A stretch of 64,000 nucleotides of DNA from Candidatus Marinacidobacterium sp. (GTDB taxonomy: Bacteria > Acidobacteriota > Vicinamibacteria > Marinacidobacterales > Marinacidobacteraceae). Below the pieces are notes generated by a model. That model had not been told where the DNA came from and ran no database searches. It worked only from the letters and a program-made list of their open reading frames with translations. Position 1 is the stretch's first letter, and every line of letters begins with the position of its first letter. The position numbers were made by a program, and so were the translations under genes. Positions 8,096 to 24,949 of this stretch are shown one piece after another. Location: positions 1,440,001 to 1,504,000 of the forward strand of contig OZ244852.1 of assembly GCA_965220965.1 (NCBI GenBank), given 5' to 3'.

Positions 8096-9943
8096 ATGTC
8101 GATAACCGGCTACCAGCCTCCGAAGTTCGCGTCAAGACGCCGGTTCCTCACGACAGCGGCCGCCGCCCCCTGGCTTGCCCTGCCCCGCCCGGCGCTGTCG
8201 CTTCCTCCGGCGTACCGCGGGAACCCGCTCGCGCTGTCCGGGACCGACTTCCAGCTCGACGTCGGCGAGCACCAGATCCGGGCCACCAGCCGTTCGCGGC
8301 CGGCGACGCTCGTTCAGGGTTCGCTTCCGGGACCCACGCTGCGCTGGCGCGAAGGGGACGACGTCACGATCCGGGTCCGCAACCGGCTCGACGAATCCAC
8401 CTCGATCCACTGGCACGGCCTGCTCGTCCCCCCGGGGATGGACGGCGTGCCTGGCGTCAGCTTCCCGGGCATCGCTCCCGGCGAGACCTTCACCTACCGG
8501 TTCCGGGTCCGCCAGAACGGCACCTACTGGTACCACTCGCACAGCGGGTTCCAGGAGCAGACCGGCGTCTACGGCGCGCTGATCATCGACCCGGCGGGAC
8601 CGGAGCGGTTCCCGGTGGACCGCGACCACGTCATGGTGCTCTCGGACTGGACCGACGACGACCCCCACCGCGTCTACAACCGGCTGAAGCGGGACTCGGA
8701 GTTCTATCTCTCGAACCGCCGCACGCTGGGGGACCTGGTTCGGGAGGTCCGCGAGCGGGGGCTGGGCGCCACCCGTTCGGACCGGGCGATGTGGGGCCAG
8801 ATGCGGATGAGCGACCGGGACATCTCGGATGTGACCGGCGCCGAATACACGTTCCTGATGAACGGGGCCTCCCCGGATCCGGGCGCCTCCTTCCTCGCCA
8901 ACCCCGGCGAACGGGTGCGGCTCCGCGTCATCAACGCCGCGGCGATGACCTACTTCGACCTGCGGATCCCGGGGCTCAGCCTGCGGGTGATCGCGGTTGA
9001 CGGACAGCCGGTCGAGCCGGTCACGGTGGACGAGCTCCGGATCGGCGTGGCCGAGACCTACGACATCCTCGTCGAGCCGAAGGACGCCGGCCCCTACCCG
9101 GTCTTCGCCCAGGCGATCGACCGGTCCGGGTTCGCATTCGGCTCGCTGGGAGCGGATCCGGCGGCGCGCGCCGAGCCGCCCGCCATGGACCCGCCGACGT
9201 TCCTGACGCACGCCGACATGGGCATGGCCCCGACGGAGGACCACGCCGCTCACGGCGCGCCGGCCGAGCCCGCCGCCCCCATGATGGATCACGGCGAACA
9301 CGCCGGGCACGCCATGCCGATGCAGGGCGGGGAACACGCCGGGCACGCGATGCCGGCGCAGCACGGCGCCCACGGTGGGAACGGAAATTCCGGAGCGCAC
9401 ACCGCGAGCGCGCCGGCCCCGGTCCGGAACCCGGTGGCACTCGGTCCGGGCGTCGACATGCGGGTGGACTTCCCGAAGGACCGCCTCGATGACCCCGGCG
9501 CCGGCCTCCGCAACAACGGTCGCCGCGTCCTGACCTACGCCGACCTGACGAGCACGGAAGTGAGGCCGGCCGACCCGGACCGGGAGATCGAACTCCACCT
9601 GACGGGTTCGATGTGGCGGTATCTGTGGTCGTTCGACGGCATCCCCCGTCGTGATGCGCCGCCGATGCGATTTCGGGAGGGGGAGCGGGTCCGGATGGTG
9701 CTGATCAACGACACCGGCATGAACCACCCGATCCATCTCCATGGCATGTGGAGCGACGTCGAGACCGGCGGCCCCGCCGGAGGCCCCGACGGCGTCGTCC
9801 GGAAGCACACCGTCTCGGTGCAGCCCGCCAGCCGGGTCCGCGCGCTGGTGCACGCCGACGCGCCCGGGCCGTGGGCCTTCCACTGCCATCTGCTCTACCA
9901 CATGCCCGGCATGTTCCGGGAGGTCCATGTCGGTGAGGTCTGA
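8096..9943 (+). CDS. copA: Copper resistance multicopper oxidase (CopA/PcoA family), Tat-exported
   Basis: SRRRFL Tat motif; HWHG, WYHSH, HPIHLHG, HCHLLYHM copper ligands; His/Met-rich insert. Confidence 0.95.
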   Translation: MSITGYQPPKFASRRRFLTTAAAAPWLALPRPALSLPPAYRGNPLALSGTDFQLDVGEHQIRATSRSRPATLVQGSLPGPTLRWREGDDVTIRVRNRLDESTSIHWHGLLVPPGMDGVPGVSFPGIAPGETFTYRFRVRQNGTYWYHSHSGFQEQTGVYGALIIDPAGPERFPVDRDHVMVLSDWTDDDPHRVYNRLKRDSEFYLSNRRTLGDLVREVRERGLGATRSDRAMWGQMRMSDRDISDVTGAEYTFLMNGASPDPGASFLANPGERVRLRVINAAAMTYFDLRIPGLSLRVIAVDGQPVEPVTVDELRIGVAETYDILVEPKDAGPYPVFAQAIDRSGFAFGSLGADPAARAEPPAMDPPTFLTHADMGMAPTEDHAAHGAPAEPAAPMMDHGEHAGHAMPMQGGEHAGHAMPAQHGAHGGNGNSGAHTASAPAPVRNPVALGPGVDMRVDFPKDRLDDPGAGLRNNGRRVLTYADLTSTEVRPADPDREIELHLTGSMWRYLWSFDGIPRRDAPPMRFREGERVRMVLINDTGMNHPIHLHGMWSDVETGGPAGGPDGVVRKHTVSVQPASRVRALVHADAPGPWAFHCHLLYHMPGMFREVHVGEV

Positions 9944-10634
9944 GCGGGACGACCGCCGCAAACCGGCCGCGCGACGCGCCAGGGCGGCCCTCTTCCTCGC
10001 GGCGCTGCTGTCGATCCCCGTGGCGGGAGCGGCCGACGAGGTGGACGAGGACCCGGTTCTCGTCTGGCTGGGCGCGAACGAAATCTCATGGTTGGCCGGC
10101 GATCACTTCAAAGCCGAGTGGGACGCCGAGGCGTGGATCGGCCGCAGCCGCACGCGGTTCTACGTGCGCAAGGAAGGGCTCGCCGACGAAGACGGCGCCT
10201 CGCTCGGCGATCTGGAGTTCCGGGCGTCCCGCGCCATCGGCCCCTTCTGGAATCTGGTCGGCGGTCTCCGCTCGACCGGCGGCGCCGAGCGTCACCAGAT
10301 GGCGATGTTCGGAGTCCAGGGGCTCGGGATCTACCACATCGAGACGAAGCTGACGGGATTTGCGTCCCCGACGGGACGCGTCGGCGCACGGCTCGAGCTC
10401 CATCAGGAGTGGTACCTCAGCCAGAGCCTGATGCTCAGCCCGGGCGTGGATGTCGACTGGGCCACTGGCGACGGACCGCGCCGTCTCCGCACCGAGGCGG
10501 AGATGCGCCTGCTCTACACGGCGAGACGCGACCTCACCCCGTTCGTCGGTGTCCGGTGGGAATACAAGGACCTCCACGGAACCGGACCCGACCGCGCAGT
10601 CCAGTTCGTCGTCGGGATCGCCGGCTGGCGCTGA
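9927..10634 (+). CDS. copB: Copper resistance outer-membrane protein (CopB/PcoB family)
   Basis: Overlaps copA end; WDAEAWIG, RAIGPFWN, GVQGL..Y, PFVGV.W and terminal FVVGIAGW motifs; start uncertain. Confidence 0.85.
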   Translation: MSVRSERDDRRKPAARRARAALFLAALLSIPVAGAADEVDEDPVLVWLGANEISWLAGDHFKAEWDAEAWIGRSRTRFYVRKEGLADEDGASLGDLEFRASRAIGPFWNLVGGLRSTGGAERHQMAMFGVQGLGIYHIETKLTGFASPTGRVGARLELHQEWYLSQSLMLSPGVDVDWATGDGPRRLRTEAEMRLLYTARRDLTPFVGVRWEYKDLHGTGPDRAVQFVVGIAGWR

Positions 10635-10903: not shown

Positions 10904-12109
10904 ATGGCCAAACCCATCACCCTGGATGCCCTTCTTGGGGCCTGCGCTGACGACGGGTTCGACGACGGGATCCGCATCGACACCGAGCTGGAACCGATCG
11001 GGGGACCCGGTGGGTCGGTGAAGCCCGCCGTCTACGAGGGCGGCAAGTACCAACGGGATCAGCGGTGGGCGTCCCCGGACGATCAGGAACCGACGCCCGT
11101 CATCGTGATCGATAACGTCGCCTCCCAGGCCAACCGGCTCGAGGATGCCCTGCGTCGCTACCGCGACGCGGTGGGGATCCCGGAACTCCTGCTCGACCTT
11201 TCGGCCCTGGAATCGCTCCCCGTTCACCTGCCGAGGCGGATTTCGAGTCTTCAGTTTCCGCACCGCAATGCGGACGCCTACCTCCGGGATGCCCGCCTGG
11301 ATGACGAGGACTTCATCCGGACGCCGCTGGGCAAGGCCATCTTCGGTGCGACGGCCCAGACCTGCGGTCCGCTGATGGCCTGGTTCCCTCAGGCGCTGAT
11401 CTATGGCTTCTGGCAGTCCCACCTCGGGAAGAAGAGGCAGAACACGAAGCACCCGCGCGCGTGGGTTTCGGAGATCGTGGGATGGCATCCCGCCTCCAGG
11501 GACACCCGGACCCTCGGACTCAAAGGAGATCCGCTGAATCTCACGAGCGATGCCCAGATCACCGTAAACACACATGACCAGTTGGCGTGGGAGATGGAAC
11601 CGGCGAAGTCGGGAGACGGTGGTGACAGGCTCTCGGAAATCGGACACGGTCAGATTCTCTTCATGCGGGACGATCCAAGAAAGCCGCTGCCGGCCGCGGC
11701 CGTCTCCTTCGCACGCGTATCGCAACGGGCCACGATTTCCTTCGCGCAGCTCCGGCGAGTGAGCCTCGGCCAAGAACACCTGAGGGACGGTGACGCCGCC
11801 GCCCGGGCTCTTCTCGTGGCTCTGGGACTCCACGCTCACGTTCTCGCCTTCGGTCAGGGGTTCGCGCTCAGGTCGGGCGCGGAACTCCGTCCCGTGGAGG
11901 CCCGCGTGAAGTGGCTGGGCGGCACCTCGGATGAGGACTGCACGCTTGGTGATGTCGTAACGAGCCGCAACTTGCTATCGGCCGCACGTGAGTACGCTGG
12001 TACGAACGGCGTCCCACTCGATGGTTGGGGAGCGCCTCCGACGATGCTTAGTCCTTCGAAAAAACTGTCGGCCGCGATCCGCAACACCTGGCCAATCCTG
12101 GAGGACTGA
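10904..12109 (+). CDS. csb1: Type I-G CRISPR Cas7 (Csb1)
   Basis: VKPAVYEGG, IDNVASQANRLE, PHRNADAYLR, LIYGFWQS and LRSGAEL motifs; AGGAGG RBS. Confidence 0.93.
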   Translation: MAKPITLDALLGACADDGFDDGIRIDTELEPIGGPGGSVKPAVYEGGKYQRDQRWASPDDQEPTPVIVIDNVASQANRLEDALRRYRDAVGIPELLLDLSALESLPVHLPRRISSLQFPHRNADAYLRDARLDDEDFIRTPLGKAIFGATAQTCGPLMAWFPQALIYGFWQSHLGKKRQNTKHPRAWVSEIVGWHPASRDTRTLGLKGDPLNLTSDAQITVNTHDQLAWEMEPAKSGDGGDRLSEIGHGQILFMRDDPRKPLPAAAVSFARVSQRATISFAQLRRVSLGQEHLRDGDAAARALLVALGLHAHVLAFGQGFALRSGAELRPVEARVKWLGGTSDEDCTLGDVVTSRNLLSAAREYAGTNGVPLDGWGAPPTMLSPSKKLSAAIRNTWPILED

Positions 12110-13563
12110 TGCTCGCTGTCTCGGTCGAATTCCTTCATGGGACGTTTCGCGGTGACCCGGACGGGACCGCCAACACGGGTGGCCTGACCCGAGGTGAGTG
12201 GCCTCCTGCTCCTGCTCGGCTGTTCTCTGCGTTCGTCGCAGCCGATGGCACCAGGGACGCCTGCCGGGTCACGGACGGCAGCGAACTCAACTGGCTCGAA
12301 GCCTTGCCCGCACCGGAGATCTACGCTGAGGAAGCGCCGACCACACGGTCGCTGGAACCACGTTTCGTGGTGCGACACACCGGCAAGTTCGCAGTCAACG
12401 CCACTACCCGACAGCTCGATGTCCACCAGGAGTACGTCGGGCGAAAGGGCGCCGAAGTGCGACCCGGAGTCCGCATCTCGTTGCGGGATCCGCGAGTGGT
12501 CTACAAGTGGGAGGACGCTTCCGCCCCGGATCGTGTCCTGAAGTCCCTACGACTCCGCGCCGCCCGAATCGGCTACCTCGGCGCGGCGGACTCTCCCGTG
12601 CGGGTGCGCGTGTGGGAGAAACCCCCTGTTGACAGCACTCCGCGCGACCGGTTTTTTCCGGATGACGAGGGCGACCACGTCATCTGCGTTCCCCGATCGG
12701 GAGATCTCGAACTACTGGACGGCTGGTTCGATCAGTGGACTGAACGCGGAGCAAGCGTTGGACGCGGGCAGTTTCCCGCGCTTCGCCATGAAGTCCGGTA
12801 CCGCGCTCCCTCGTCCCAAGTATCCGACCAGGGCGGGCGCGTGGTCGCCTGGCTGAGCATTCGACCCGCGGTCTCGGGTCGCCGCGTACGGGAACTCACG
12901 GCGCGCTTCAAGGACAGCGTGTTGAGTCGCTACGAGGCCCTCTACGGTGAGCCGCCTGCTGTCCTCACCGGTCATGGATTCGAGAGCCCGGGATACGAGA
13001 TCGCCCGATACCTCGCGCTGCCGGATGTCGGATTCCCTCGGTCGGGCGGACAGATCCACGGCCTAGCTCTCTGGACGCCGCCTGGGTGGGACCCTCGCCT
13101 CGCCCGCAGGGCTGGCGATGCGGCGCGCGCCATATGGCGAATCCAGGGCGCGACGGTGGACGTCAGGGTGCAGCCGTACGATCGTCTTGATCCGCGCGTG
13201 GCCTCGTCGCCTCGTCGCTGGCTGCAAAGGGCCAACGGCTGGGCAACGGCCTTTCCCGCGATCCACGAGCGACGGAAGACGCTCGATCTCGACGAACTAC
13301 GCCGCTGGTGCGCGCATGCTGGACTCCCGGCGCCCTCGCACTTCCGAACCCACCGCAAACCACTGATTCGAGGCGCCGTCGATCTGGCTCCGGTAGAAGT
13401 GAACCGGCCCGGGCGTCCGGGCCTTCCGTACTCGCACCTGGAGATCTGGTTTCCGGAGCCGGTGAGAGGCCCCGTCGTTGTTGGATCCGGACGACAGCGC
13501 GGGTTTGGGCTGTGCGTCCCGATCCTTGACTCATCCACACCTTCGGCGGGTTCGAAGCCGTGA
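12109..13563 (+). CDS. csb2: Type I-G CRISPR Cas5-Cas6 fusion (Csb2)
   Basis: EWPPAPARLFSA, GYLGAADS, LPDVG and C-terminal G-rich loop GPVVVGSGRQRGFGLC; translationally coupled to csb1. Confidence 0.92.
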   Translation: MLAVSVEFLHGTFRGDPDGTANTGGLTRGEWPPAPARLFSAFVAADGTRDACRVTDGSELNWLEALPAPEIYAEEAPTTRSLEPRFVVRHTGKFAVNATTRQLDVHQEYVGRKGAEVRPGVRISLRDPRVVYKWEDASAPDRVLKSLRLRAARIGYLGAADSPVRVRVWEKPPVDSTPRDRFFPDDEGDHVICVPRSGDLELLDGWFDQWTERGASVGRGQFPALRHEVRYRAPSSQVSDQGGRVVAWLSIRPAVSGRRVRELTARFKDSVLSRYEALYGEPPAVLTGHGFESPGYEIARYLALPDVGFPRSGGQIHGLALWTPPGWDPRLARRAGDAARAIWRIQGATVDVRVQPYDRLDPRVASSPRRWLQRANGWATAFPAIHERRKTLDLDELRRWCAHAGLPAPSHFRTHRKPLIRGAVDLAPVEVNRPGRPGLPYSHLEIWFPEPVRGPVVVGSGRQRGFGLCVPILDSSTPSAGSKP

Positions 13564-16355
13564 CCCCTCTGGAGGCAGAAATGCGACCAGTGCCGGCGTT
13601 CGCGGACTTCTACCGCGCGATCAACGATCGCGACCCCTTCCCGTGGCAGGACCGCCTCGCCCGACAGGTAGAGGCGCAAGAGGCTTGGCCTCGCGAAGTT
13701 GGGGTTCCGACCGGACTCGGCAAGACGGCCTGCCTTGAGGTCGCGATCTGGTGGCTCGCGTCCCAGGCGCATCGCCCGCCTGCGGACCGAACTGCGCCGA
13801 CGCGCATCTGGTGGGTGGTCAACCGCCGCCTTCTGGTGGATTCGACAGCCGAACACGCGACCAGGCTGGCCGACGAGCTGCTATCCGCTGAACGGTCCCC
13901 AGAGAAGACCAGTCGGGAGCAGGTTCTCGCAACCGTGGCCAGCCGGCTTCGATCTCTCGCCGCGGATCCGGACGCCGACCCACTGCAGGTCATACGCCTT
14001 CGTGGTGGGGTCTCTTCGGATATCCCCATCGATCCGTCCCAGCCCTGTGTACTGCTCTCGACGGTCCCAATGTACGGGTCCAGGCTGCTCTTTCGCGGAT
14101 ATGGGTCCACTCGCAGCCGCAGGCCGATGGACGCAGCGTTGGCGGGAACAGACAGTCTCGTGCTGCTCGACGAGGCTCATCTGGCTTTCCACCTGCGCAA
14201 GCTGATGCCTGCCCTTCGCGAGTGCGCGCCAGAGCAGACTGGAGTACTCCGCCTCCCCCGCGACAGGCCGAGGCTCGTCTCTCTCACCGCGACCGGTGAG
14301 GCCACCAAGTCGGACCGATTCGACCTTGACGCCGAGGACGAGGCTCATCCGGTCGTTCGGCAGCGAGTGCACGCCGCCAAGCCAATGACAGTACGCCAGG
14401 CGAACGGGAAGGCGCACACGAACCTCGTTGAGGCCGCCCTTTCGCTGCTTCCTCCCGACGAATCGCCCGCATCCTGTCTCGTCTTTGCGAATACGCCAGC
14501 AACAGCTCGCGCCGTCTTCGACCTGCTTCAACGGAAGGCCCATCGCTTCGCGGACATCCTCCTGCTCACGGGACGCGCGAGGGAACGAGAGGCGGAGGCC
14601 ATACGGAAACGCATTCTGCATCCCGTCTCGGGCATGCCGTCGGACCGCATCGCATCTGAGAGCCGCAAGCGACACCTCATCGTCGTAGCCACCCAGACAC
14701 TCGAGGTCGGTGCTGATCTCGATGCGGAGTACATGGTGACTGAGGCCTGCGGCGTTCGGGCGCTCACCCAGCGACTCGGCAGGCTGAACCGCTTGGGACG
14801 CCATTCTCGGGCGAGGGCGATCTACATTCACACGGCGCCCAGGAAGGCGCGGCGGGGCGCGCCTGAGTTCGGTTGGCCGGTCTACGGAAAGGAACCGCAA
14901 ACGGTTCTGGAGCGACTCGAGTCTGCCCCAACGCTTGAGGACGGTTCGCTGGACATGTCACCCGGCAACATTACGACCATCCTCGGCGAGCCTCTGGACA
15001 CTCCCGGACGGGCGCCGGAATTGCTCCCTGGTCTGCTGTGGGAGTGGATCAAGACCACGAACCGCCCCTCGGGCGAGGCGGCGGTCGAGCCGTACTTCTC
15101 CGGGATCGCACGACCGAGACGATCCGTGCGGCTGATCTGGCGGGCGCACATTCCCACCGACGAGCAAGAAACACTCTGGCCGCGGCCCCGTGACTCCGAA
15201 GTCGTCGAGGTCTTGATCGGTGAAGCCAGAGAGGCATTGGGCAACGACGAGATGATGGTGGTGGATCCCGACGACATGTCGGTTAGCCCCCAGAGGCTCC
15301 GCCCGGGACATCTGTTCGTGCTGCCCTCGAATCGTGGGCTGATGGACGCGTTTGGATGGAACCCGGCGGCTACGGAACCCGTCGTGGATGTGTCGCTCGA
15401 GGAACACGGATTGCCGCTGAGCACCAGGGCGCTCGATCGGATCTACAGCGGTGCCGCTCCTCCCGAAGCGATCTCGTGTGTGGGGTCGCTTCTGAGGACC
15501 GATGATCAAGGGGAACCGGAAGTTTCCGACCCACGCGAACGCACGGAGACGACAGGCAGGCTTCTCGAGGCGCTCAGGGCCACCGCCCCACCCGGATGGC
15601 TTCCGGATCGTTGGGCGGCCTTCCTCCACTCGCTGAAACCAGAGGTCGTTTCGCCCCGTCGCGAGGCGCCGCGCCTTCACGCTCGCTCCGGTCGAGTTGA
15701 ACCACGCAGCGACGCCGCCGATGAGGCCTCGATGGCTCCCCAGGCCGTCGATTTGGACGCTCACGGCCACGCCGTCGGTGAGCGCGCGCGGGCGGTCGCG
15801 GAACGCCTCGGCCTTGATGGCGCAATCACCGGAGTACTGGACCGCGCCGGGCGGCTTCATGACATCGGCAAGTCAGAGATTCGGTTCCAGCGATGGCTGA
15901 ATCCGGACGGCGAAGAGAACGGTCTCGTCGCGAAATCAACGACGCCCCGTCACCGGTGGGAGGCGACGCGCGCGGCGTCCGGGTGGCCTCGCGGCGGTCG
16001 ACACGAGGACCTCTCGGCCCGGCTGGCACGAAGGTGGCTCGACACGCAGCCCGAACCGACGGATCCAGTCTTCAAGGACCTGTTGATCCACCTGATCATC
16101 AGTCATCACGGCCACGGACGCCCCCTGGTGCGCCCGGTGAGGGACGGTTCGGACGCATCGGTAGAGGCCGTCATCGAAGGCCGGACCGTCGAGGCTTCCA
16201 CCAACCTCGAGATCGTTGACTGGGGTCAGCCCGGCCGCTTTCGTCGGTTGAATGACCGCTTCGGGCCGTGGGGGCTCGCCCTCCTCGAGACGATCATCCG
16301 TCGAGCCGACCACTCGGTTTCCGGCGCCCGAGCCGAACATGGAGAGATCCAGTGA
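13560..16355 (+). CDS. cas3: Type I-G Cas3 helicase-nuclease with C-terminal HD domain
   Basis: PFPWQ, PTGLGKT, DEAH, TAT, QRLGRLNR helicase motifs; HD domain at the C-terminus (LHDIGK, RHE, SHHG, ADH), the arrangement diagnostic of I-G. Confidence 0.95.
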   Translation: MTPLEAEMRPVPAFADFYRAINDRDPFPWQDRLARQVEAQEAWPREVGVPTGLGKTACLEVAIWWLASQAHRPPADRTAPTRIWWVVNRRLLVDSTAEHATRLADELLSAERSPEKTSREQVLATVASRLRSLAADPDADPLQVIRLRGGVSSDIPIDPSQPCVLLSTVPMYGSRLLFRGYGSTRSRRPMDAALAGTDSLVLLDEAHLAFHLRKLMPALRECAPEQTGVLRLPRDRPRLVSLTATGEATKSDRFDLDAEDEAHPVVRQRVHAAKPMTVRQANGKAHTNLVEAALSLLPPDESPASCLVFANTPATARAVFDLLQRKAHRFADILLLTGRAREREAEAIRKRILHPVSGMPSDRIASESRKRHLIVVATQTLEVGADLDAEYMVTEACGVRALTQRLGRLNRLGRHSRARAIYIHTAPRKARRGAPEFGWPVYGKEPQTVLERLESAPTLEDGSLDMSPGNITTILGEPLDTPGRAPELLPGLLWEWIKTTNRPSGEAAVEPYFSGIARPRRSVRLIWRAHIPTDEQETLWPRPRDSEVVEVLIGEAREALGNDEMMVVDPDDMSVSPQRLRPGHLFVLPSNRGLMDAFGWNPAATEPVVDVSLEEHGLPLSTRALDRIYSGAAPPEAISCVGSLLRTDDQGEPEVSDPRERTETTGRLLEALRATAPPGWLPDRWAAFLHSLKPEVVSPRREAPRLHARSGRVEPRSDAADEASMAPQAVDLDAHGHAVGERARAVAERLGLDGAITGVLDRAGRLHDIGKSEIRFQRWLNPDGEENGLVAKSTTPRHRWEATRAASGWPRGGRHEDLSARLARRWLDTQPEPTDPVFKDLLIHLIISHHGHGRPLVRPVRDGSDASVEAVIEGRTVEASTNLEIVDWGQPGRFRRLNDRFGPWGLALLETIIRRADHSVSGARAEHGEIQ

Positions 16356-17257
16356 CAGCGAACCTCGAGTGTCCCGGTCTGCCGGCATACTGGATCAATG
16401 GCTGGCTGGCAGCGGTCGGCGCAACGGTTCTCTGTCCGCAGCTTCGCCTTCGGTGGACGCGAGCGGGCACTCCCCGCGCCGTGCTCTCGATGCGGGACGA
16501 TGCGGTCGACGAAGCCATCGCGGCTTCTTGGCCCACGGCGGCCTACCTTGAGGAACTTCCCATCGCAAAGCAGTGGTCTGGAACTCCGGAGGTCAAGATG
16601 CACCGTGAAGTGTTAATCGACACCTTCGTCCAGCGTGTCCAAGCCGCACGCAGCCATCCGGACTCCTGGACGCTTAGCTCCACGATGACGGACCTCGCCG
16701 TCACGTTAGAGGGACAGGTCGTCCACGCTCCTTTCGACGCGCCCGCGCCACAGGGACTCACCCTGCACGAGCGCCTTCTCAAGACTCACGGCGCGATCGC
16801 CCTACCTCCCACAGCTGAGAGAGTTCGGCAATCTCTCCAAGGACTGGTGGCACGGGTGAGAGGCAACGGACTGGGGTTCGACCAGTCGCGGCTGGCTTCC
16901 TTCGCTGACACTGGCACGAAATTCGTCGATCCAGTAGTCGAAGTCTTGGCGTTCTTCGGTCTGCGACTCCTGCCCGTGCGCGGCCCGGGACGCGAAGCTA
17001 CCCGCCAGAACCCGCCGAGAGCAACCCCACGCAACTGGTCCCTGCCGTCGTCCGGTCCCCGGACACTTCGCTTCCAGTGGCCAGCATGGACGCAGCCCTT
17101 GGACTGGCACGCCATTGATGCCCTGTTGGATGTCTGGAATCCCTCGTGTCCCAAATCCTGGCCGCGGTACGGCGTGCACGCCGCCTGGCAGACCGTTCGC
17201 TACGAGGCGAAGAACCGCCGCAATCCAACGCGTGCGTATGGATCGGAACGGATGTGA
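16352..17257 (+). CDS. Type I-G short large subunit Cas8g2 (Csb3/Cas8u2-like), 301 aa
   Basis: GTG overlapping the cas3 stop (GTGA); GL....NGWLAAVG start, LGFD, LAFFGLRLLPV and FQWPAW.QPL motifs. Confidence 0.8.
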   Translation: MTANLECPGLPAYWINGWLAAVGATVLCPQLRLRWTRAGTPRAVLSMRDDAVDEAIAASWPTAAYLEELPIAKQWSGTPEVKMHREVLIDTFVQRVQAARSHPDSWTLSSTMTDLAVTLEGQVVHAPFDAPAPQGLTLHERLLKTHGAIALPPTAERVRQSLQGLVARVRGNGLGFDQSRLASFADTGTKFVDPVVEVLAFFGLRLLPVRGPGREATRQNPPRATPRNWSLPSSGPRTLRFQWPAWTQPLDWHAIDALLDVWNPSCPKSWPRYGVHAAWQTVRYEAKNRRNPTRAYGSERM

Positions 17258-17330
17258 TGGAACGCGTGGCGTTGTCCCGATTCCGTGGACAGCTAGACCT
17301 AGAGTTGGCTAATCGCCAAGTGAAGTCCAC

Positions 17331-17505
17331 GTGGGCACAGGAAAGGAAGAGATGTATTCGACGGAAACCCGGGAACGGCTCGTCGCCCTGGTTCGACAGA
17401 GCCGCGAGCCGAAGGCGCTGGTTCGGGAGTTCGTTCGAGGTGATCGCTGAGACTATCAGGAAGTGGAGGGCCGAGCAGGATCGTGAGCGGGGGCCTCCTC
17501 GCAGA
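17331..17505 (+). pseudogene. Frameshifted IS3 OrfA-like HTH gene remnant
   Basis: Reads MGTGKEEMYSTETRERLVALVRQSREPKALVREF, then after a TTCG duplication (17430-17437) EVIAETIRKWRAEQDRERG; aligns with the 25025..25327 protein; 3' end approximate. Confidence 0.7.
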
Positions 17506-17547
17506 ACGCGTCCCAAGGTCCGGGCACTTCCTCCGTCGGGATTAGCA

Positions 17548-19121
17548 GTGTCGCCGGGTTTACAGGCCCCTGCCTTCGTTGGACGAAGTGGCGGGGCTGT
17601 GCGAACGAGATCTTCTTCTTCGAGTGTCGCCGAGGCTCACGCCCGGGCCTTCGTTGAGCGATCCGCAAGGGCATCGACCTTGAGCGCGGACTGGTCAAGT
17701 GTCGCCGGAGTTCACGCCCCGGCCTTGGTTGAGCGTCCTCGAAAGTCAGCGAGACTTCGGCGAAGTGGACTGGTGTCGCCGGGGTTCATGCCCCGGCCTT
17801 CGTTGAGCGAAGATCCGCATGCGCGTCGGCATGGCTGTCACCACCCGTGTCGCCGGGGTTCACGCCCCGGCCTTCGTTGAGCGGTCCAGAGATCCTTCTT
17901 GAACTGATCGTTGACCCACGTGTCGCCGAGCTTCACGCCCCAGCCTTCGTTGAGCGCGCCAGCTTTGCGACTGGCGGTGGCTTTCCCGGCTTGTGTCGCC
18001 GGGGTTCACGCCCCGGCCTTCGTTGAGCGGAGTATGGAGTCGGGGCTCGCAACGGCCCGAACGAGGTGTCGCCGGGGTTCACGCCCCGGCCTTCGTTGAG
18101 CGCTGCCGCCTCCCTCAGACTCGGCATCGGCTTCGAGTGTCGCCGGGGTTCACGCCCCGGCCTTCGTTGAGCGTGCCAGACCCTTCGCCCGTTGATGTCC
18201 ATGGCGAGGCGGGTGTCGCCGGGGTTCACGCCCCGGCCTTCGTTGAGCGCAGAACCCGGAAGCCGTCGGGCGCGTCAGGATGACCGGTGTCGCCGGGGTT
18301 CACGCCCCGGCCTTCGTTGAGCGCGGGCCGGAACGTGCTCGCGCATTCTCCGGCTACATACAAGTGTCGCCGGGGTTCACGCCCCGGCCTTCGTTGAGCG
18401 CTGCCGCCTCCCTCAGACTCGGCATCGGCTTCGAGTGTCGCCGGGGTTCACGCCCCGGCCTTCGTTGAGCGTGCCAGACCCTTCGCCCGTTGATGTCCAT
18501 GGCGAGGCGGGTGTCGCCGGGGTTCACGCCCCGGCCTTCGTTGAGCGCAGAACCCGGAAGCCGTCGGGCGCGTCAGGATGACCGGTGTCGCCGGGGTTCA
18601 CGCCCCGGCCTTCGTTGAGCGCGGGCCGGAACGTGCTCGCGCATTCTCCGGCTACATACAAGTGTCGCCGGGGTTCACGCCCCGGCCTTCGTTGAGCGGG
18701 TGTCGAGTGTCTCATCCCGGAACACGGCGTCCGGCTGTGTCGCCGGGGTTCACGCCCCGGCCTTCGTTGAGCGACATTCCACGATCACACGTGGCACAAC
18801 ATCACCGACTGGTGTCGCCGGGGTTCACGCCGCGGCCTTCGTTGAGCGAATACCCCTATGACACAGCACGGATCGGCCGCCGCCGACCGGGTGTCGCCGG
18901 GGTTCACGCCCCGGCCTTCGTTGAGCGTCGACATCGTGGACGGTCGCGGCGACCAGTGAACCGGGTGTCGCCGGGGTTCACGCCCCGGCCTTCGTTGAGC
19001 GCGCAGCGCGTCGCACAGGTGGTCGTCCCTCTTCAGCGGGTGTCGCCGGGGTTCACGCCCCGGCCTTCGTTGAGCGCGGACGGGCATCGTCCGGGGCCGC
19101 GCCCAGCGCTTCCTGTGTCGC
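17548..19121 (+). CRISPR. CRISPR array block 1: 21 full repeats, 21 spacers and a 7-bp truncated repeat
   Basis: Consensus GTGTCGCCGGGGTTCACGCCCCGGCCTTCGTTGAGCG (37 bp, hairpin GCCGGGG/CCCCGGC); spacers 34-42 bp; first repeats degenerate; strand inferred from the I-G-like 3' handle. Confidence 0.97.
18066..18661 (+). repeat. Exact tandem duplication of four repeat-spacer units (298 bp x 2)
   Basis: Spacers 8-11 (18066-18363) are identical to spacers 12-15 (18364-18661). Confidence 0.95.
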
Positions 19122-19280
19122 TGTTGGCGGGCACGCAAAAGTGCACACATCTGGGCATCCAAAATGGCGCAGTTCGGGGCTTGGCGCGCGGATCGCTGGG
19201 GGCTGTCTGCGGGAGTAGCGTCTCCCAGGGGGAACGGGGATCGGGGCAAGCTGTCGTCTCTACTGACGGAGGGAGGCGTC

Positions 19281-20327
19281 ATGTTCGAGAGGACGAAGAG
19301 GGTTCTGGCGAGGCACTACCTGGACGAGGGGATGAGCAAGGCGGCGGTTGCTCGCCGCGTCGGGGTCGGCAGGAGGACGCTGTACAACTGGATCCGGGGT
19401 GGACTGCTCGAGGGTCGGCTGGGAGACCAGAAGGGCGGATACGGTCCCCGGGGTTCAGGGAGGTCAAAGCTCGAGCCGTTCGAGGAGATCATCCGGGCGC
19501 GGCTGAGCGTCCACCCGCACCTGAGCGCCGTTCGGCTTTTCGAAGAGGTGAGGGCGGCGGGCTACACCGGCGGGTATGACCAGGTGAAGCGGCACGTCCG
19601 GGAGGTCCGGCCTCGGGAGCGGGTGGAGCCGCCAGTCAGGTTCGAGACGCCCCCAGGCCATCAGGGTCAGGTGGACTTCGCGGAGTTCGGGCTGCCGTGG
19701 GGGAGACGCCACGCGCTGATGGTGGTGCTGGGCTATTCGCGTCGACTCTGGCTGCGGTTCTACGAGGGCCAGACGATGATGGTGTTGATCCGCGGCCTTG
19801 AGGAAGCGTTCTCGTATCTGGGGGGCGTGCCGACGGAGTTGTTGTTCGACCAGATGAAGGCGGTGGTGATCGCCGACGGGCGGGGTTCGGGCGGCCGGTT
19901 GGTCAAGAACGCGGAGTTCCGGGGCTTCAGCGATCACTGGGGCTTCCGGATCCGGGCCTGCCGGCCGCATCAGGCGCAGACGAAGGGGAAGGTCGAGCGT
20001 CCGATCCGATACGTGCGGGATAACTTCTTCTACGGGCGCGAGTTCGTGTCTGACGACGACCTGAACGCGCGGGCGCGGCAGTGGCTCGACGATGTGGCCA
20101 ACGTGCGGGTTCACGGGAGCCTGGGGGAGCGCATTGACGAGCGCTTCGCCCGAGAGGCCCCTCTGCTGGGTCCGCTGGCGGAGCGGCCCTACGCCCCGGT
20201 CGTGCCGCGGATCGAAGCGGCGACGAAGCCGGGGCAAGATGTCCGGGGGCCGGGCGTACCGCGCATCGCCGTCGAACGGCGGTCGCTGGAGGACTACGCG
20301 TCAGTCGGCGCAGGGGGAGCGTTGTGA
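19281..20327 (+). CDS. istA: IS21 transposase
   Basis: N-terminal HTH, RFETPPGHQGQVDF, LLFDQMK, TKGKVER. Confidence 0.95.
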   Translation: MFERTKRVLARHYLDEGMSKAAVARRVGVGRRTLYNWIRGGLLEGRLGDQKGGYGPRGSGRSKLEPFEEIIRARLSVHPHLSAVRLFEEVRAAGYTGGYDQVKRHVREVRPRERVEPPVRFETPPGHQGQVDFAEFGLPWGRRHALMVVLGYSRRLWLRFYEGQTMMVLIRGLEEAFSYLGGVPTELLFDQMKAVVIADGRGSGGRLVKNAEFRGFSDHWGFRIRACRPHQAQTKGKVERPIRYVRDNFFYGREFVSDDDLNARARQWLDDVANVRVHGSLGERIDERFAREAPLLGPLAERPYAPVVPRIEAATKPGQDVRGPGVPRIAVERRSLEDYASVGAGGAL

Positions 20328-21142
20328 AGCCCCGGTCTCGCCGGCAGCACATCGCCGAGCAACTGGCCGACCTGAAGATGCCGGGAGCTCTCGAGGCCCT
20401 GGACGAGGTCCTCGCCGGAGTGGACGGCGGCGGCTACACCGCGTCCGAGGCGATCGATCGGCTGCTGGCTGCGCAGATCGCGCTCCGCAACAGCCGCCGG
20501 CTGGCCACGGCGATGCGCTCCAGCCGTCTTCCGGGGCTGAAGACGCTGCGGGACTTCGACTTCACCTTTCAGCCGTCCCTTCGGCGGGAGCAGATCGACT
20601 CGCTACACGAGCTCGGCTTCCTGGAGCGCAAGGAGAACGTCGTGTTCCTGGGCCCACCGGGTGTGGGGAAGACCCATCTGGCGATCAGCCTGGCGGTCGC
20701 GGCCGCCGAGAACGGGCGCAGGATCTACTTCGGGACGCTGAGCGATCTGATCGAGTCACTCGAAGAGGCCCACGCATCAGGCCGGCTCAAGCAGCGGCTT
20801 CGGACGCTCACGCATCCTGCGCTGCTGGTCGTGGACGAGATCGGGTATCTCTCCGTGACGCCGAACGGAGCCCGGTTGTTCTTCCAGCTCGTGAACGCCC
20901 GCTACCGGCGGGGTTCGACCGTGCTGACCTCGAACAAGGGCTTCGAGCACTGGGGCGAGATCCTGCACGACGAGGTCATGGCGGCAGCCCTCCTGGACCG
21001 CCTGCTGCACCGCTGCCACATCGTCAACATCCGTGGGAACAGCTATCGGATGCGACGTCAGATGGAGCTGTCACGCGCCATTCACCCCACCGCATCCCGG
21101 GCGGCGGAGGCCGAGATCAACCAGCAAGGACGGGAGTCGTGA
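20324..21142 (+). CDS. istB: IS21 helper ATPase
   Basis: GPPGVGKTHLA, LLVVDEIGY, TSNK, LLDRLLH. Confidence 0.95.
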   Translation: MKPRSRRQHIAEQLADLKMPGALEALDEVLAGVDGGGYTASEAIDRLLAAQIALRNSRRLATAMRSSRLPGLKTLRDFDFTFQPSLRREQIDSLHELGFLERKENVVFLGPPGVGKTHLAISLAVAAAENGRRIYFGTLSDLIESLEEAHASGRLKQRLRTLTHPALLVVDEIGYLSVTPNGARLFFQLVNARYRRGSTVLTSNKGFEHWGEILHDEVMAAALLDRLLHRCHIVNIRGNSYRMRRQMELSRAIHPTASRAAEAEINQQGRES

Positions 21143-21262
21143 AGCCTCGCCGCACCGCCGGTCCGGCCCCCACTCCGGTCGCTCCGCTCCCTCCGCGGCG
21201 GCCAGACCGAACTGTGCCATTTTCGGCGCCCAAATGTGTGCCATTTTCGATGCCCATTGACA

Positions 21263-21791
21263 CTCGGATCCTTGCTGACTGGGGTGTCGCCGGGGTTCAC
21301 GCCCCGGCCTTCGTTGAGCGACGAAGGCATCGAACTCGGTCAGCTCGTCTGTCTCCCGTGTCGCCGGGGTTCACGCCCCGGCCTTCGTTGAGCGGGCGTG
21401 GAATGCTTGATTCCGGAGCATGGCGTCCGGGTCGTGTCGCCGGGGTTCACGCCCCGGCCTTCGTTGAGCGCCGAGGTCGGTTGATTCCGTCGTCGTGATG
21501 TAGTCGACGGGTGTCGCCGGGGTTCACGCCCCGGCCTTCGTTGAGCGCGGCCGCAACTCGCACAGGTCGAATCCCACTCCTCCCAAGGTGTCGCCGGGGT
21601 TCACGCCCCGGCCTTCGTTGAGCGCGGCCGCAACTCGCACAGGTCGAATCCCACTCCTCCCAAGGTGTCGCCGGGGTTCACGCCCCGGCCTTCGTTGAGC
21701 GCACGACAACCCGATGGCGGACCGCCTGACGGTCTGGGCGTGTCGCCGGGGTTCACACCCCAGCCTTCATTGAGCGACCGAATCCGCACGC
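21263..21791 (+). CRISPR. CRISPR array block 2: 7 repeats (21284-21776) with partial spacers at both ends
   Basis: Same repeat; spacer 21548-21587 duplicated at 21625-21664; 21-bp and 15-bp spacer remnants abut the IS ends. Confidence 0.96.
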
Positions 21792-22034
21792 TGTTGGCTG
21801 CACGGCAAGACTTCCCAGAAGTTGCAGACGAGAACTGCCCAGAAGTTGAACACGAGAACTGCCCAGCCGGGGAGGTCGGATTCGGTTGAGGCAAGGGGGG
21901 AGCGGAGGACCGCGCAATGGGGGCAGACTTGGGGGCGGGCCGGGGAGCAGCGGAGAGCGTGGGGCTTGCGGCCCGGTGAGGGAGACGTTGGCAGGTCGGG
22001 GACTGGACTCCTTGCCGCGGCCCGCGGAGAGACG

Positions 22035-23078
22035 ATGCATGGGCCAGAGAAGAGGGCGCGGTTCCAGGAGCTTCGGAAGACGGGGCTGAGCCGGAGGGCG
22101 ATCGCGCGGGAGCTCGGGGTGAGCAGAAGGACGCTGTATGTCTGGGAGCGGGAGGGGGCGTCGTGGTCGGGCCGGTCCCGGCCACGCCCGCCGGTGGCGA
22201 GCATCTTGGACCCGTTCAAGGAGCTGATCAGGGAGCGGCTGGCGCTGGCTCCGAGGCTGTCGGCGGAGCGGGTGTTCCAGGAGATCCGGGAGTACGGGTA
22301 CGTCGGGGGATACCGGCTGGTGAGCCGGTATGTGTCGGAGGTGCGTCCCCGGCGGAAGGAGGACCCGGTGGTCCGCTTCGAGACGAAGCCCGGGGTTCAA
22401 GGGCAAGTGGACTTCGCGACCTTCCGGTTCGCCTGGGGAGTCACGCATGCGGTGGTTGTGCTGCTGGGCTACTCGCGGATGCTGTGGTTCCGGTTCGTGG
22501 AGAGCCAGAAGCAGGAGGTTCTGATCCGGGGGCTGGAGGACGCGTTCGTGTTCTTCGGGGGTGTCCCTCAGGAGCTGCTGTTCGATCAGACGAAGGCGGT
22601 GGTGGTTCGGGACGAGCGCTCGCGGGGCGGGGAGCTGTTGAAGAACCGGGACTTCGAGCTGTTCGCGGAGCACTGGGGCTTCGCGATCCGGGCCTGCCGT
22701 CCGTATCGTGCGCGGACGAAGGGGAAGGTGGAGCGGGCGATCCGTTATCTGCGCGACGGCTTCGCGTATGCGCGGGAGTTCGCTTCGCTGGAGGATGCCA
22801 ACCAGCAGGCGCTGCGCTGGCTGGAGCAGGTCGGGAACCGGCGGGAGCTGAAGGCGCTGACCCGGGCGACGGGACGGAAGCAGACGCCGCTGGGGAGGCT
22901 CGAGGATGGGAGGCCGCATCTGATGCCGCTGATGTCGCGCCGGTGGCCGGGGTTGAGGCCGATGGTGTCCGAGGCGCGGCGGGAGGCTTCGGTGGGGACA
23001 GTGGGTTCCGGTGTTCCCCGTCGGGTGGTGGTGGAGCGTCGGCCTCTGTCGGAGTATGCCGAGCTGGCCGGGAGCTGA
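22035..23078 (+). CDS. istA: IS21 transposase
   Basis: HTH (LSRRAIARELGVSRRTLY), RFETKPGVQGQVDF, LLFDQTK, TKGKVER. Confidence 0.93.
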   Translation: MHGPEKRARFQELRKTGLSRRAIARELGVSRRTLYVWEREGASWSGRSRPRPPVASILDPFKELIRERLALAPRLSAERVFQEIREYGYVGGYRLVSRYVSEVRPRRKEDPVVRFETKPGVQGQVDFATFRFAWGVTHAVVVLLGYSRMLWFRFVESQKQEVLIRGLEDAFVFFGGVPQELLFDQTKAVVVRDERSRGGELLKNRDFELFAEHWGFAIRACRPYRARTKGKVERAIRYLRDGFAYAREFASLEDANQQALRWLEQVGNRRELKALTRATGRKQTPLGRLEDGRPHLMPLMSRRWPGLRPMVSEARREASVGTVGSGVPRRVVVERRPLSEYAELAGS

Positions 23079-23081
23079 GCG

Positions 23082-23909
23082 ATGGCGCTGAAGACGATGA
23101 AGCCGGCGACGAGGCGGGAGCGGATCGCGGCGCAGCTGGTGGACCTGAAGCTTCCGGGAGCGCTGGAGGTTCTGGACCAGGTCCTGTCAGGACTTGACGG
23201 GGCGACGCTGAGCGGCGGGGAGGCGATCGAGGAGCTGCTGGGGGCACACATCGAGCTCCGGAACCGGCGGCGGCTGAAGGCGGCGGTGCGTTCGAGCCGG
23301 CTGCCGGCGATCAAGCGGCGGGAGGACTTCGTGATGAGCTTCCAGCCGTCGCTGAAGCCGGAGCAGATCGACTCGCTGTTCGAGCTGGACTTCCTGGACC
23401 GGCAGGAGAACGTGGTGTTCCTGGGCCCTCCGGGGGTTGGGAAGACGCACCTTGCGATCGCGCTGGCCGTGAAGGCTGCGGAGCAGGGCCGCCGGGTGTA
23501 CTTCGGATCGCTGAAGGATCTGGTGGAGTCGCTGGAGGAGGCTCGGGCGGCGGGACACTTGCGGCGGCGACTGAAGGTCCTGACCTATCCGCCGCTGCTG
23601 GTGGTGGACGAGGTGGGGTATCTGTCGCTGACGCGTGACGGAGCGGCGCTGTTCTTCCAGTTGATCAACGCGCGCTACGAGCGGGGCTCGACGGTGCTGA
23701 CGTCGAACAAGGGGTTCGAGGAGTGGGGGCAACTGCTGGGGGACGAGGTGATGACGGCGGCGCTGCTGGACCGCCTGGTGCACAAGTGCCACATCGTGAC
23801 CATCAGTGGGAACAGCTACCGGATGCAGGAGCACCGCGAGCTGGCGAAACGGCTGTGGCCAGGGCGGCTGGCGAACGCCGAGGGCGTGTCAACGGGAGGA
23901 GAGCGGTGA
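23082..23909 (+). CDS. istB: IS21 helper ATPase
   Basis: GPPGVGKTHLA, LLVVDEVGY, TSNK, LLDRLVH. Confidence 0.95.
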   Translation: MALKTMKPATRRERIAAQLVDLKLPGALEVLDQVLSGLDGATLSGGEAIEELLGAHIELRNRRRLKAAVRSSRLPAIKRREDFVMSFQPSLKPEQIDSLFELDFLDRQENVVFLGPPGVGKTHLAIALAVKAAEQGRRVYFGSLKDLVESLEEARAAGHLRRRLKVLTYPPLLVVDEVGYLSLTRDGAALFFQLINARYERGSTVLTSNKGFEEWGQLLGDEVMTAALLDRLVHKCHIVTISGNSYRMQEHRELAKRLWPGRLANAEGVSTGGER

Positions 23910-24053
23910 GGCGCGGCGGCGGTTGGGAGGGCGGTGGCGTAGCGAGGGGCGGGGTCGAAACGCCGCCCTTCTACTCGCCGCGAGTAGCCCATACCCGACT
24001 CGTCTCAACCACCCCCAAGCAGCCGTCCCTCCTTTGACGACGTCCCGATCTCA

Positions 24054-24110
24054 TGTCAATGGGCACCGAAAATGGCACACATTTGGGCACCGAAAATGGC
24101 GCACTTCCGG
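24054..24110 (-). mobile_element. Orphan IS21 terminus, near-identical to the right end of IS #1 but inverted
   Basis: TGTCAATGGGCACCGAAAATGGCACACATTTGGGCACCGAAAATGGC is the reverse complement of ~21216-21262 with a few substitutions. Confidence 0.85.
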
Positions 24111-24186
24111 GCGCCGAGGATGTCGCATGTCGGTCCAACCGAGGCGCAGGGCGGATCCATGGCGCGCTACCGCGGCGTGTGCGGTC

Positions 24187-24949
24187 CTGTCGCAGGGGTT
24201 CACACCCCGGCCTTCGTTGAGCGCAGTTGGCCCGGAGTCTCACGTATCGCGCGATCCGTGTCGCCGGAGTTCACACCCCGGCCCTCGTTGAGCATGCTAC
24301 GACGCGCACTCCCCCGGCAACCTGCCCGCGGTGTCGCCGGGGTTCACTGCCCCGGCCTTCGTTGAGCGCCGAACCACCACGTGACAGTCGTCGTGGCGAG
24401 GAAGGTGTCGCCGGGGTTCACGCCCCGGCCTTCGTTGAGCGGACGACAAGACGGAGGCGCTGGTCGACATGGCCGGTGGTGTCGCCGGGGTTCACTGCCC
24501 CGGCCTTCGTTGAGCGGGGTTGCTACCGATGGCGGCGAGGCCGCTGAGGAGAGTGTCGCCGGGGTTCACACCCCGGCCTTCGTTGAGCGTCCGCCACACT
24601 GGCCGGGACCCCGGCGCTCCGCGCCGTGTGTCGCCGGGGTTCACGCCCCGGCCTTCGTTGAGCGATGAAGTAGATTCCTTCCAACTGCCCCAACCCTCAG
24701 CATGTGTCGCCGGGGTTCACGCCCCGGCCTTCGTTGAGCGCGGCTGCGGCTGAGCGACATTCGGCCCATCGAGGATCTGGGTGTCGCCGGGGTTCACGCC
24801 CCGGCCTTCGTTGAGCGACCATCCACCGCCGCCTCCCCGACGGAGACGTGCGCCTGTGTCGCCGGGGTTGACCCCACGGCCTTCGTTGAGCGTGTCCGAC
24901 TCTGGCCAGGTGGGACGGGTGGCGCGTAAGAGGTGTCGCCGGGGTTCAC
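24187..24949 (+). CRISPR. CRISPR array block 3: 10 full repeats and a 17-bp truncated repeat
   Basis: Same repeat with several variants (TTCACT insertion, CACACC); last repeat stops after GGGGTTCAC. Confidence 0.95.

Follow-up and report, generated by a model that had tools for sequence, protein, structure and literature searches.

Two spacers of a rearranged type I-G CRISPR array in Candidatus Marinacidobacterium spell one peptide with silent differences and probably stem from diverged homologs of one gene

Type I-C and type I-F arrays of short palindromic repeats, clustered and regularly interspaced (CRISPR), in Legionella pneumophila can hold the same or overlapping spacers within one array, and the report describing them takes such pairs to mean that related elements attacked more than once, possibly with help from priming (Rao et al. 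2016, PMC5071653). Protospacers that vary have been described from viruses and phages: a viral lysin gene of hot-spring mats shows silent and conservative protospacer variation (Heidelberg et al. 2009, PMC2612747), and both synonymous and nonsynonymous protospacer differences are reported for C. difficile phages (PMC4173771). Here, we describe 2 spacers, A and B, of a single type I-G CRISPR array in Candidatus Marinacidobacterium sp. (Acidobacteriota; assembly GCA_965220965.1), which differ at nine silent sites and yet translate into the same 12-residue peptide. The array lies in a stretch of 64,000 nucleotides (nt) that was analyzed as a whole (contig OZ244852.1, positions 1,440,001 to 1,504,000; hereafter the window), and coordinates are those of the window unless another contig is named.

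The pair resembles the Legionella case in that 2 spacers of one array would go back to the same site of related foreign elements. In Legionella, however, the target (LME-1) is known and the pairs, as presented in the available text, differ by a few mismatches that fall within the PAM (protospacer adjacent motif) or the seed, whereas A and B differ at 10 of 38 positions and their silent sites appear saturated. It also resembles the lysin case, as far as the accessible part of that report goes, because the peptide is kept while nucleotide identity drops to ∼70%, i.e. the comparison is one of amino acids; there, the variation lies on the virus side against one spacer, whereas here both variants are stored in one host array. 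As for the system itself, the locus shares Csb1/Cas7g, Csb2, and a Cas3g with C-terminal HD domain with the type I-G (formerly I-U) systems of Thioalkalivibrio sulfidiphilus and Geobacter sulfurreducens, along with a repeat whose hairpin plus 12 nt allows an 8-nt handle (PMC9638904, PMC10504553), and its spacer phasing is consistent with a TTN-type PAM. Unlike those systems, in the form that the available texts give them, the window locus has no detected Csx17/Cas8g and carries a 329-amino-acid Cas3-extension gene instead, lacks cas4, cas1, and the leader, and has its array cut by IS21 elements.

Both spacers are flanked on each side by perfect 37-nt repeats (Table 1). When aligned from their first base, A and B agree at 27 of the first 36 positions and at 28 of 38, with mismatches at spacer positions 3, 6, 9, 12, 13, 15, 18, 24, 27, and 37. 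A comparison of all six reading frames reveals that the identical 12-residue peptide GVECLIPEHGVR emerges from A and B in + frame 0 only, while the next-best frame, a minus frame, requires 3 replacements. The preliminary description of the window, which a model made from the sequence alone, had reported precisely this—i.e. 2 spacers, one peptide, and nine silent differences in 36 nt—and its coordinates are exact. Its count stands for the 36 nt, but it overlooked position 37, which holds C in A and G in B and is the tenth difference. Codon 13 thus reads CTn for Leu in spacer A and GTC for Val in spacer B, and the distal part of the spacer also shows divergence.

We find that the likeness between A and B is real and far exceeds what chance would give. 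Unrelated pairs reach at most 21 matches among the 60 spacers of the genome (1,770 pairs) and at most 23 among the 178 spacers found in five arrays of this repeat family (15,753 pairs). In the latter set, no non-identical pair other than A/B rises above noise. Neither do the next-best pairs (23 matches) carry the silent pattern, and there are no intermediates between A and B among the 178 spacers. The silent pattern is also rare in simulation: of 100,000 sets of nine random substitutions, 5 were entirely silent in one or another of the six frames, and none was so in frame +0.

The codons of the 2 spacers are identical in 4 of 12 cases, compared with 3.9 identical codons expected under independent synonymous choice with uniform usage, and 6.8 with host-like usage. 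Given that A and B share about as many codons as independent choice would give, their silent sites appear saturated, and as such the source genes would be 2 long-diverged homologs. Each of the four shared codons (CCG, GGC, GTC, and CGG) is the one that the host uses most often for the residue in question. The last three of the peptide (GGC, GTC, and CGG) had led the preliminary description to propose that divergence is concentrated on the PAM-proximal side. This proposal is not supported: the end codons are host-preferred, all three would coincide with P = 0.066 under host-like usage even if chosen fully independently, and divergence between A and B resumes at codon 13, immediately past them. 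A simple count for the shared end codons yields 0.018, a value that applies to one pre-chosen end, while the pattern was noticed post hoc.

The relation of the pair to its PAM depends on the orientation of the array, and three findings show that the CRISPR RNA (crRNA) is read from the + strand. In a genome of the same genus (G019), the cas genes run in the direction of the repeat + strand, with a degenerate repeat at the far end of the array. Across the five arrays, the loop of the repeat is variable while its stem and 3' tail are conserved, and the + strand folds into a hairpin at repeat positions 6-25 followed by 12 nt, whereas the minus strand leaves 5 nt only. Type I-G repeats are cut 4 nt beyond the hairpin base, which results in an 8-nt handle, and the fold predicted for the + strand agrees with this geometry as given in the available text (PMC9638904). 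In the same type, Cas4 is described as cutting the PAM end precisely, with the PAM end joined on the spacer side, while the non-PAM end is trimmed by Cas1 to variable overhangs of 6-8 nt (PMC10504553), and the PAM reported is TTN (PMC9638904). According to our own reading of this integration geometry, the PAM end would be the spacer 5' end, next to the handle. The shared 5' base of A and B, combined with their 1-nt difference in length at the 3' end, thus fits the same PAM site.

A second line of evidence on the PAM comes from the base composition of the spacers. We considered the five arrays of the repeat family, i.e. the window spacers (17586-24855) and arrays L047-L050, and aligned their 170 unique spacers at the 5' end. 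The guanine-plus-cytosine (GC) fraction is 0.745 at positions 3, 6, 9, and so on, compared with 0.58 and 0.59 in the other phases (p = 1e-27). The difference is also found in this genome (31 unique spacers; 0.835 vs 0.59 and 0.53; p = 3e-16), while anchoring the spacers at their 3' end reveals no GC periodicity (p = 0.1). In a PAM simulation based on 988 host proxy genes, a GC peak at 3, 6, 9 arises from only four of 16 classes, all with an AT-rich dinucleotide at -3/-2 (WWN, i.e. TTN, AAN, ATN, and TAN), and the other 12 are excluded in the simulation. For example, simulated TTN, which represents 1.9% of positions, leads to GC fractions of 0.66, 0.64, and 0.84.

Together, the 5'-anchored GC peak and the simulation with AT-rich PAMs indicate that the spacers are codon-phased at their 5' end. 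The spacers of this clade thus derive for the most part from coding DNA rich in GC, and their starts fall in one set codon phase; A and B conform to this. For these 2 spacers, if the site lies on the sense strand, the PAM would be an in-frame Phe or Leu codon located right before the Gly, and a conserved peptide would keep such a codon. A limited literature search returned no description of a codon-phase signature in spacers, which may still be published. Codon phasing could orient arrays and suggest the PAM class where protospacers are lacking. If general, it would allow spacers alone to reveal the PAM class, how the array is oriented, and in which frame the target is coding, and would make it possible to cluster spacers at the peptide level.

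The protospacer of A and B is absent from every collection searched, i.e. viral, metagenome, genome, phage, and plasmid. A degenerate pattern for all 12 residues has no match in the viral contigs, and within the organism's own genome it finds just the 2 spacers. A 10-residue pattern has no match in either the genome or the metagenome contigs, and the 8-residue core ECLIPEHG has none in the viral contigs. This core is present at 31 loci elsewhere (15 in metagenome contigs and 16 in genome contigs), none of which has Gly-Val before and Val-Arg after it, and these were dismissed as chance. A relaxed core (E-C-x-[IVM]-P-E-H-G) has 2 matches in the viral contigs, both with Phe before and Val after the core, and these were likewise rejected as chance; the 2 proteins are alike around the motif only, have no PHROG match, and one lies opposite a better-looking gene.

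Nucleotide searches reveal a similar picture. The 36-mer pattern, with up to 3 mismatches allowed, is found only in this genome, both among 55 genomes of the order, a set that includes an unpublished genome (G003) as one without a match, and among 401 genomes of the phylum. Against phages, BLAST of the array produced 27 records, which lie under IS21 parts or have an expectation value (E) of ∼0.6, none being on A or B, while segments 1, 2, and 3 against plasmids produced 6, 2, and 1 records, respectively, with E of at least 0.1. Within the organism's own genome, the longest match of 37 spacers is 28 nt with 4 mismatches, and the best match of the 178 spacers is 30 nt at 90%. When the order was searched at the DNA level with a part of segment 1, the matches were array-to-array, with none on spacer A among the matches listed. 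Lastly, a metagenome run (X3) contains the organism at ∼3× depth, along with many contigs that join the 37-nt repeat to other spacers, which indicates that relatives with diversified arrays live in this sample. One X3 contig of 211 nt carries spacer B with 2 differing letters, followed by sequence unlike the window.

Given these observations, we propose, with a probability of roughly three in four, that A and B are 2 independent captures of one homologous site from anciently diverged homologs of one protein-coding gene. The preliminary description had likewise proposed independent acquisitions of a homologous site from 2 variants of a coding gene, and this part is supported by inference, as mutation after an in-place duplication cannot produce nine changes that are all silent. 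The source homologs would have been carried by GC-rich mobile elements, either phages or plasmids, and the captures would have been made by a type I-G adaptation module that was later lost from the genome. The start base shared by A and B would be the PAM end, cut precisely by Cas4. An AT-rich PAM such as TTN would be rare in GC-rich coding DNA and would fall almost always in one codon phase, and a strictly conserved peptide would keep the same PAM codon, leading to the same eligible site in both homologs. A conserved peptide could thus be sampled twice at the same site because an AT-rich PAM in GC-rich coding DNA fixes the codon phase. The silent differences would then represent ordinary, saturated synonymous divergence between the source genes, and not a directed CRISPR response.

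Several points weigh against this proposal. No protospacer was found in the collections searched, so that the evidence on the gene, its PAM, and its divergence is confined to the 38 nt of the spacers, and the call of saturation rests on a small sample of 12 codons. The PAM simulation cannot tell TTN from AAN, ATN, or TAN, and it uses host genes as a stand-in for those of the invader. The frequency of such a coincidence is also a concern: the simulation gives ∼38 TTN sites per kilobase (kb), or ∼1,500 sites per 40-kb element, and 2 uniform captures from an element of this size would share a site about once in 1,500. Even if all 31 unique spacers (465 pairs) came from one element family, the number of same-site pairs expected would be ∼0.3 at most. 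Chance is therefore possible but uncomfortable, and some bias was probably at work too, with a hot spot or otherwise uneven sampling, priming by an older spacer, and selective retention of spacers in conserved sites being the probable candidates.

We also considered how else the pair could have arisen. The preliminary description saw in it a fossil of silent-site escape and re-targeting, in which one phage lineage under pressure from one spacer gained silent changes and the host re-acquired the site from the escaped variant. A shared PAM-side start and a strictly conserved peptide would both be expected from such a history, and there are parallels for its parts: in a natural virome, protospacers are reported to vary silently or conservatively, with nucleotide identity falling as low as 70% (PMC2612747), and older and newer spacer pairs on overlapping targets are known in Legionella (PMC5071653). 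The codons, however, differ in 8 of 12 cases and agree no more than independent choice at saturated sites would have them agree, codon 13 carries a replacement, preferred codons account for the apparent clustering, and the 178 spacers of the five arrays hold no intermediate. Escape from a type I system takes one or two changes, located in the PAM or the seed. A record of it would consist of few such changes between an older and a newer spacer on an otherwise near-identical invader, while the ten differences seen here span positions 3-37. In addition, four of the changes fall at positions 6, 12, 18, and 24, which are flipped out and unpaired in other type I complexes, and if the same held for I-G, changes there would give no escape benefit. 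We regard the fossil interpretation as not supported and very improbable. In-array duplication of one spacer followed by point mutation has even less in its favor: exact duplicated spacers are present in the array, but spacers are untranslated and mutation is frame-blind, so that nine silent changes would occur ∼5 times in 100,000, and A and B also differ in length at the 3' end. The simulation of silent substitutions refutes this origin, and we give it practically no weight.

It is possible, if unlikely, that A and B were acquired in separate lineages and joined later by array recombination or by a rearrangement mediated by insertion sequences (IS). The mosaic nature of the array, with its element 1 devoid of target-site duplication, internal degenerate repeats, IS-end fragment, and duplicated blocks, is consistent with this, and so are the many X3 arrays with the same repeat and other spacers, including the 211-nt contig with its near-copy of spacer B. 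Against it, there is no direct evidence for different origins of segments 1 and 2, and their repeats are of the same variant and run in the same direction. Primed re-acquisition, in which the shared site owes nothing to chance or a hot spot and an older crRNA bound the mismatched site in the diverged homolog of a second element and primed the capture of the same site, is in our view quite unlikely. Type I systems are described as priming on mismatched targets (PMC6212716), Rao et al. offer priming as an explanation for 2 overlapping spacer pairs in the available text (PMC5071653), and same-site capture would be rare under uniform sampling, judging by the density of TTN. The pair, however, has ten mismatches in 38, including one at seed position 3, and the order of A and B is unreadable because the array is rearranged. 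Priming usually yields spacers spread around the primed site, and no other related pair is seen among the 60 spacers of the genome or the 178 of the five arrays. A wider version, in which a type I-G crRNA with 10 of 38 positions mismatched primed the capture of the same PAM-anchored site, and phase-locking by an AT-rich PAM makes conserved peptides recurrent targets across unrelated elements, strikes us as decidedly unlikely.

If A and B are indeed independent captures from 2 long-diverged homologs, they would provide a natural example of one CRISPR array storing 2 versions of one conserved protein site. They would also indicate that twin spacers need not mean an arms race at a site, with saturated divergence reflecting 2 old relatives that met one host line. 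The pair opens no new mechanism; this kind of event is already known and is unusual here only in the depth of the divergence.

Table 1. Features of the type I-G locus and of its array (window coordinates)
Feature	Position	Strand	Content and evidence
csb1/cas7g, type I-G backbone subunit	10904..12109	+	Pfam Cas_GSU0053, 116 bits; NCBIfam TIGR02570, 53.5 bits (cut-off 38)
csb2, Cas5-Cas6 fusion processing crRNA	12109..13563	+	TIGR02165, 179.4 bits (cut-off 45), full length
cas3g, helicase and C-terminal HD nuclease	13560..16355	+	TIGR02621, 615.8 bits (cut-off 400)
"Cas3-extension family" gene, final cas gene before the array	16268..17257	+	NF049934, 63.7 bits (just below the cut-off of 65)
CRISPR array segment 1	17548..19121	+	21 repeats and a 7-nt repeat stub; first six repeats degenerate
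Spacer A	18699-18736	+	38 nt; GVECLIPEHGVR followed by CTn (Leu)
IS21-family element 1	19122..21263	+	istA ∼19164-20327, istB 20324-21142; Pfam rve and IstB_IS21, 264.7 bits
CRISPR array segment 2	21264..21791	+	7 repeats, the last degenerate; partial spacers at both ends
Spacer B	21395-21433	+	39 nt; GVECLIPEHGVR followed by GTC (Val)
IS21-family element 2	21792..24053	+	istA 21822-23078, istB 23082-23909; Pfam rve and IstB_IS21, 255.7 bits
IS-end fragment, element-1 type	24054..24136		93% complementary to the right end of element 1 (21209-21262)
CRISPR array segment 3	24187..24949	+	10 repeats, several degenerate; final 17-nt truncated repeat at 24933-24949

Judged by profile scores, the locus is an interference module of type I-G, and its array is frozen. 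The features typical of the type are present, i.e. a Cas3g with a C-terminal HD domain (residues 732-867 of 931), a Csb2 fusion, and Csb1/Cas7g. The profile of the large subunit Csx17/Cas8g (TIGR04113) has no match in the genome, and control genomes gave none either. The interference genes have the same lengths as those of G019, in which csb1 is the first cas gene and is followed by csb2, cas3g, the extension gene, cas4, cas1, ∼500 nt, and 44 repeats, the degenerate one lying at the distal end. The product of the Cas3-extension gene has 329 amino acids in the window, with an equivalent gene at the equivalent place in G019, and this gene may stand in for the large subunit in this genus.

No adaptation module of Cas4/Cas1 and Cas2 lies beside the array of the window locus, where just 290 nt separate the extension gene from the first repeat, itself degenerate. 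The sole Cas1 of the genome is encoded on a second contig (C2), beside another repeat family. Because G019 has cas4 and cas1 between the extension gene and the array, the window locus has evidently lost cas4, cas1, and the leader, and its array is no longer able to extend itself.

In this genus, the I-G operon begins with csb1, has no detectable Csx17/Cas8g, and carries a Cas3-extension gene of 329-340 amino acids after cas3g. Directly upstream of csb1 in the window (8096-10634) are the copper resistance genes copA, encoding a multicopper oxidase (TIGR01480, 739.9 bits), and copB. A candidate transposase remnant between the cas genes and the array (17330-17545) is spanned by an open reading frame without a family match, and is not claimed here.

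All genomic copies of the 37-nt repeat sit in this locus, and the order of its parts shows an array that has been rearranged and partly deleted, and that was cut in three by 2 IS21-family elements. Degenerate repeats are present at several internal places, while the repeats of segments 1 and 2 represent one variant in one orientation. Segment 1 contains an exact duplication of a four-spacer block with its repeats (18103-18363 = 18401-18661), and in segment 2 the spacer at 21548-21587 is duplicated exactly at 21625-21664. No target-site duplication accompanies element 1; it is flanked on its left by 7 nt from the start of a repeat and on its right by 20 nt of a spacer, and these flanks are thus not contiguous. 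Element 2 is probably truncated, because no right-end inverted repeat matching it was found.

Internal duplications similar to those of the window are also seen in the arrays of 2 other genomes (G048 and G005). Contig C2 harbors further CRISPR arrays with other repeats (325889-327330 and 332137-333550), including one with a 28-30-nt repeat beside the only cas1 of the genome, and 2 short arrays with a 29-nt, I-E-like repeat. The 2 short arrays have near-identical upstream sequence, and the spacers of the C2 arrays have a GC fraction below that of the I-G array spacers.

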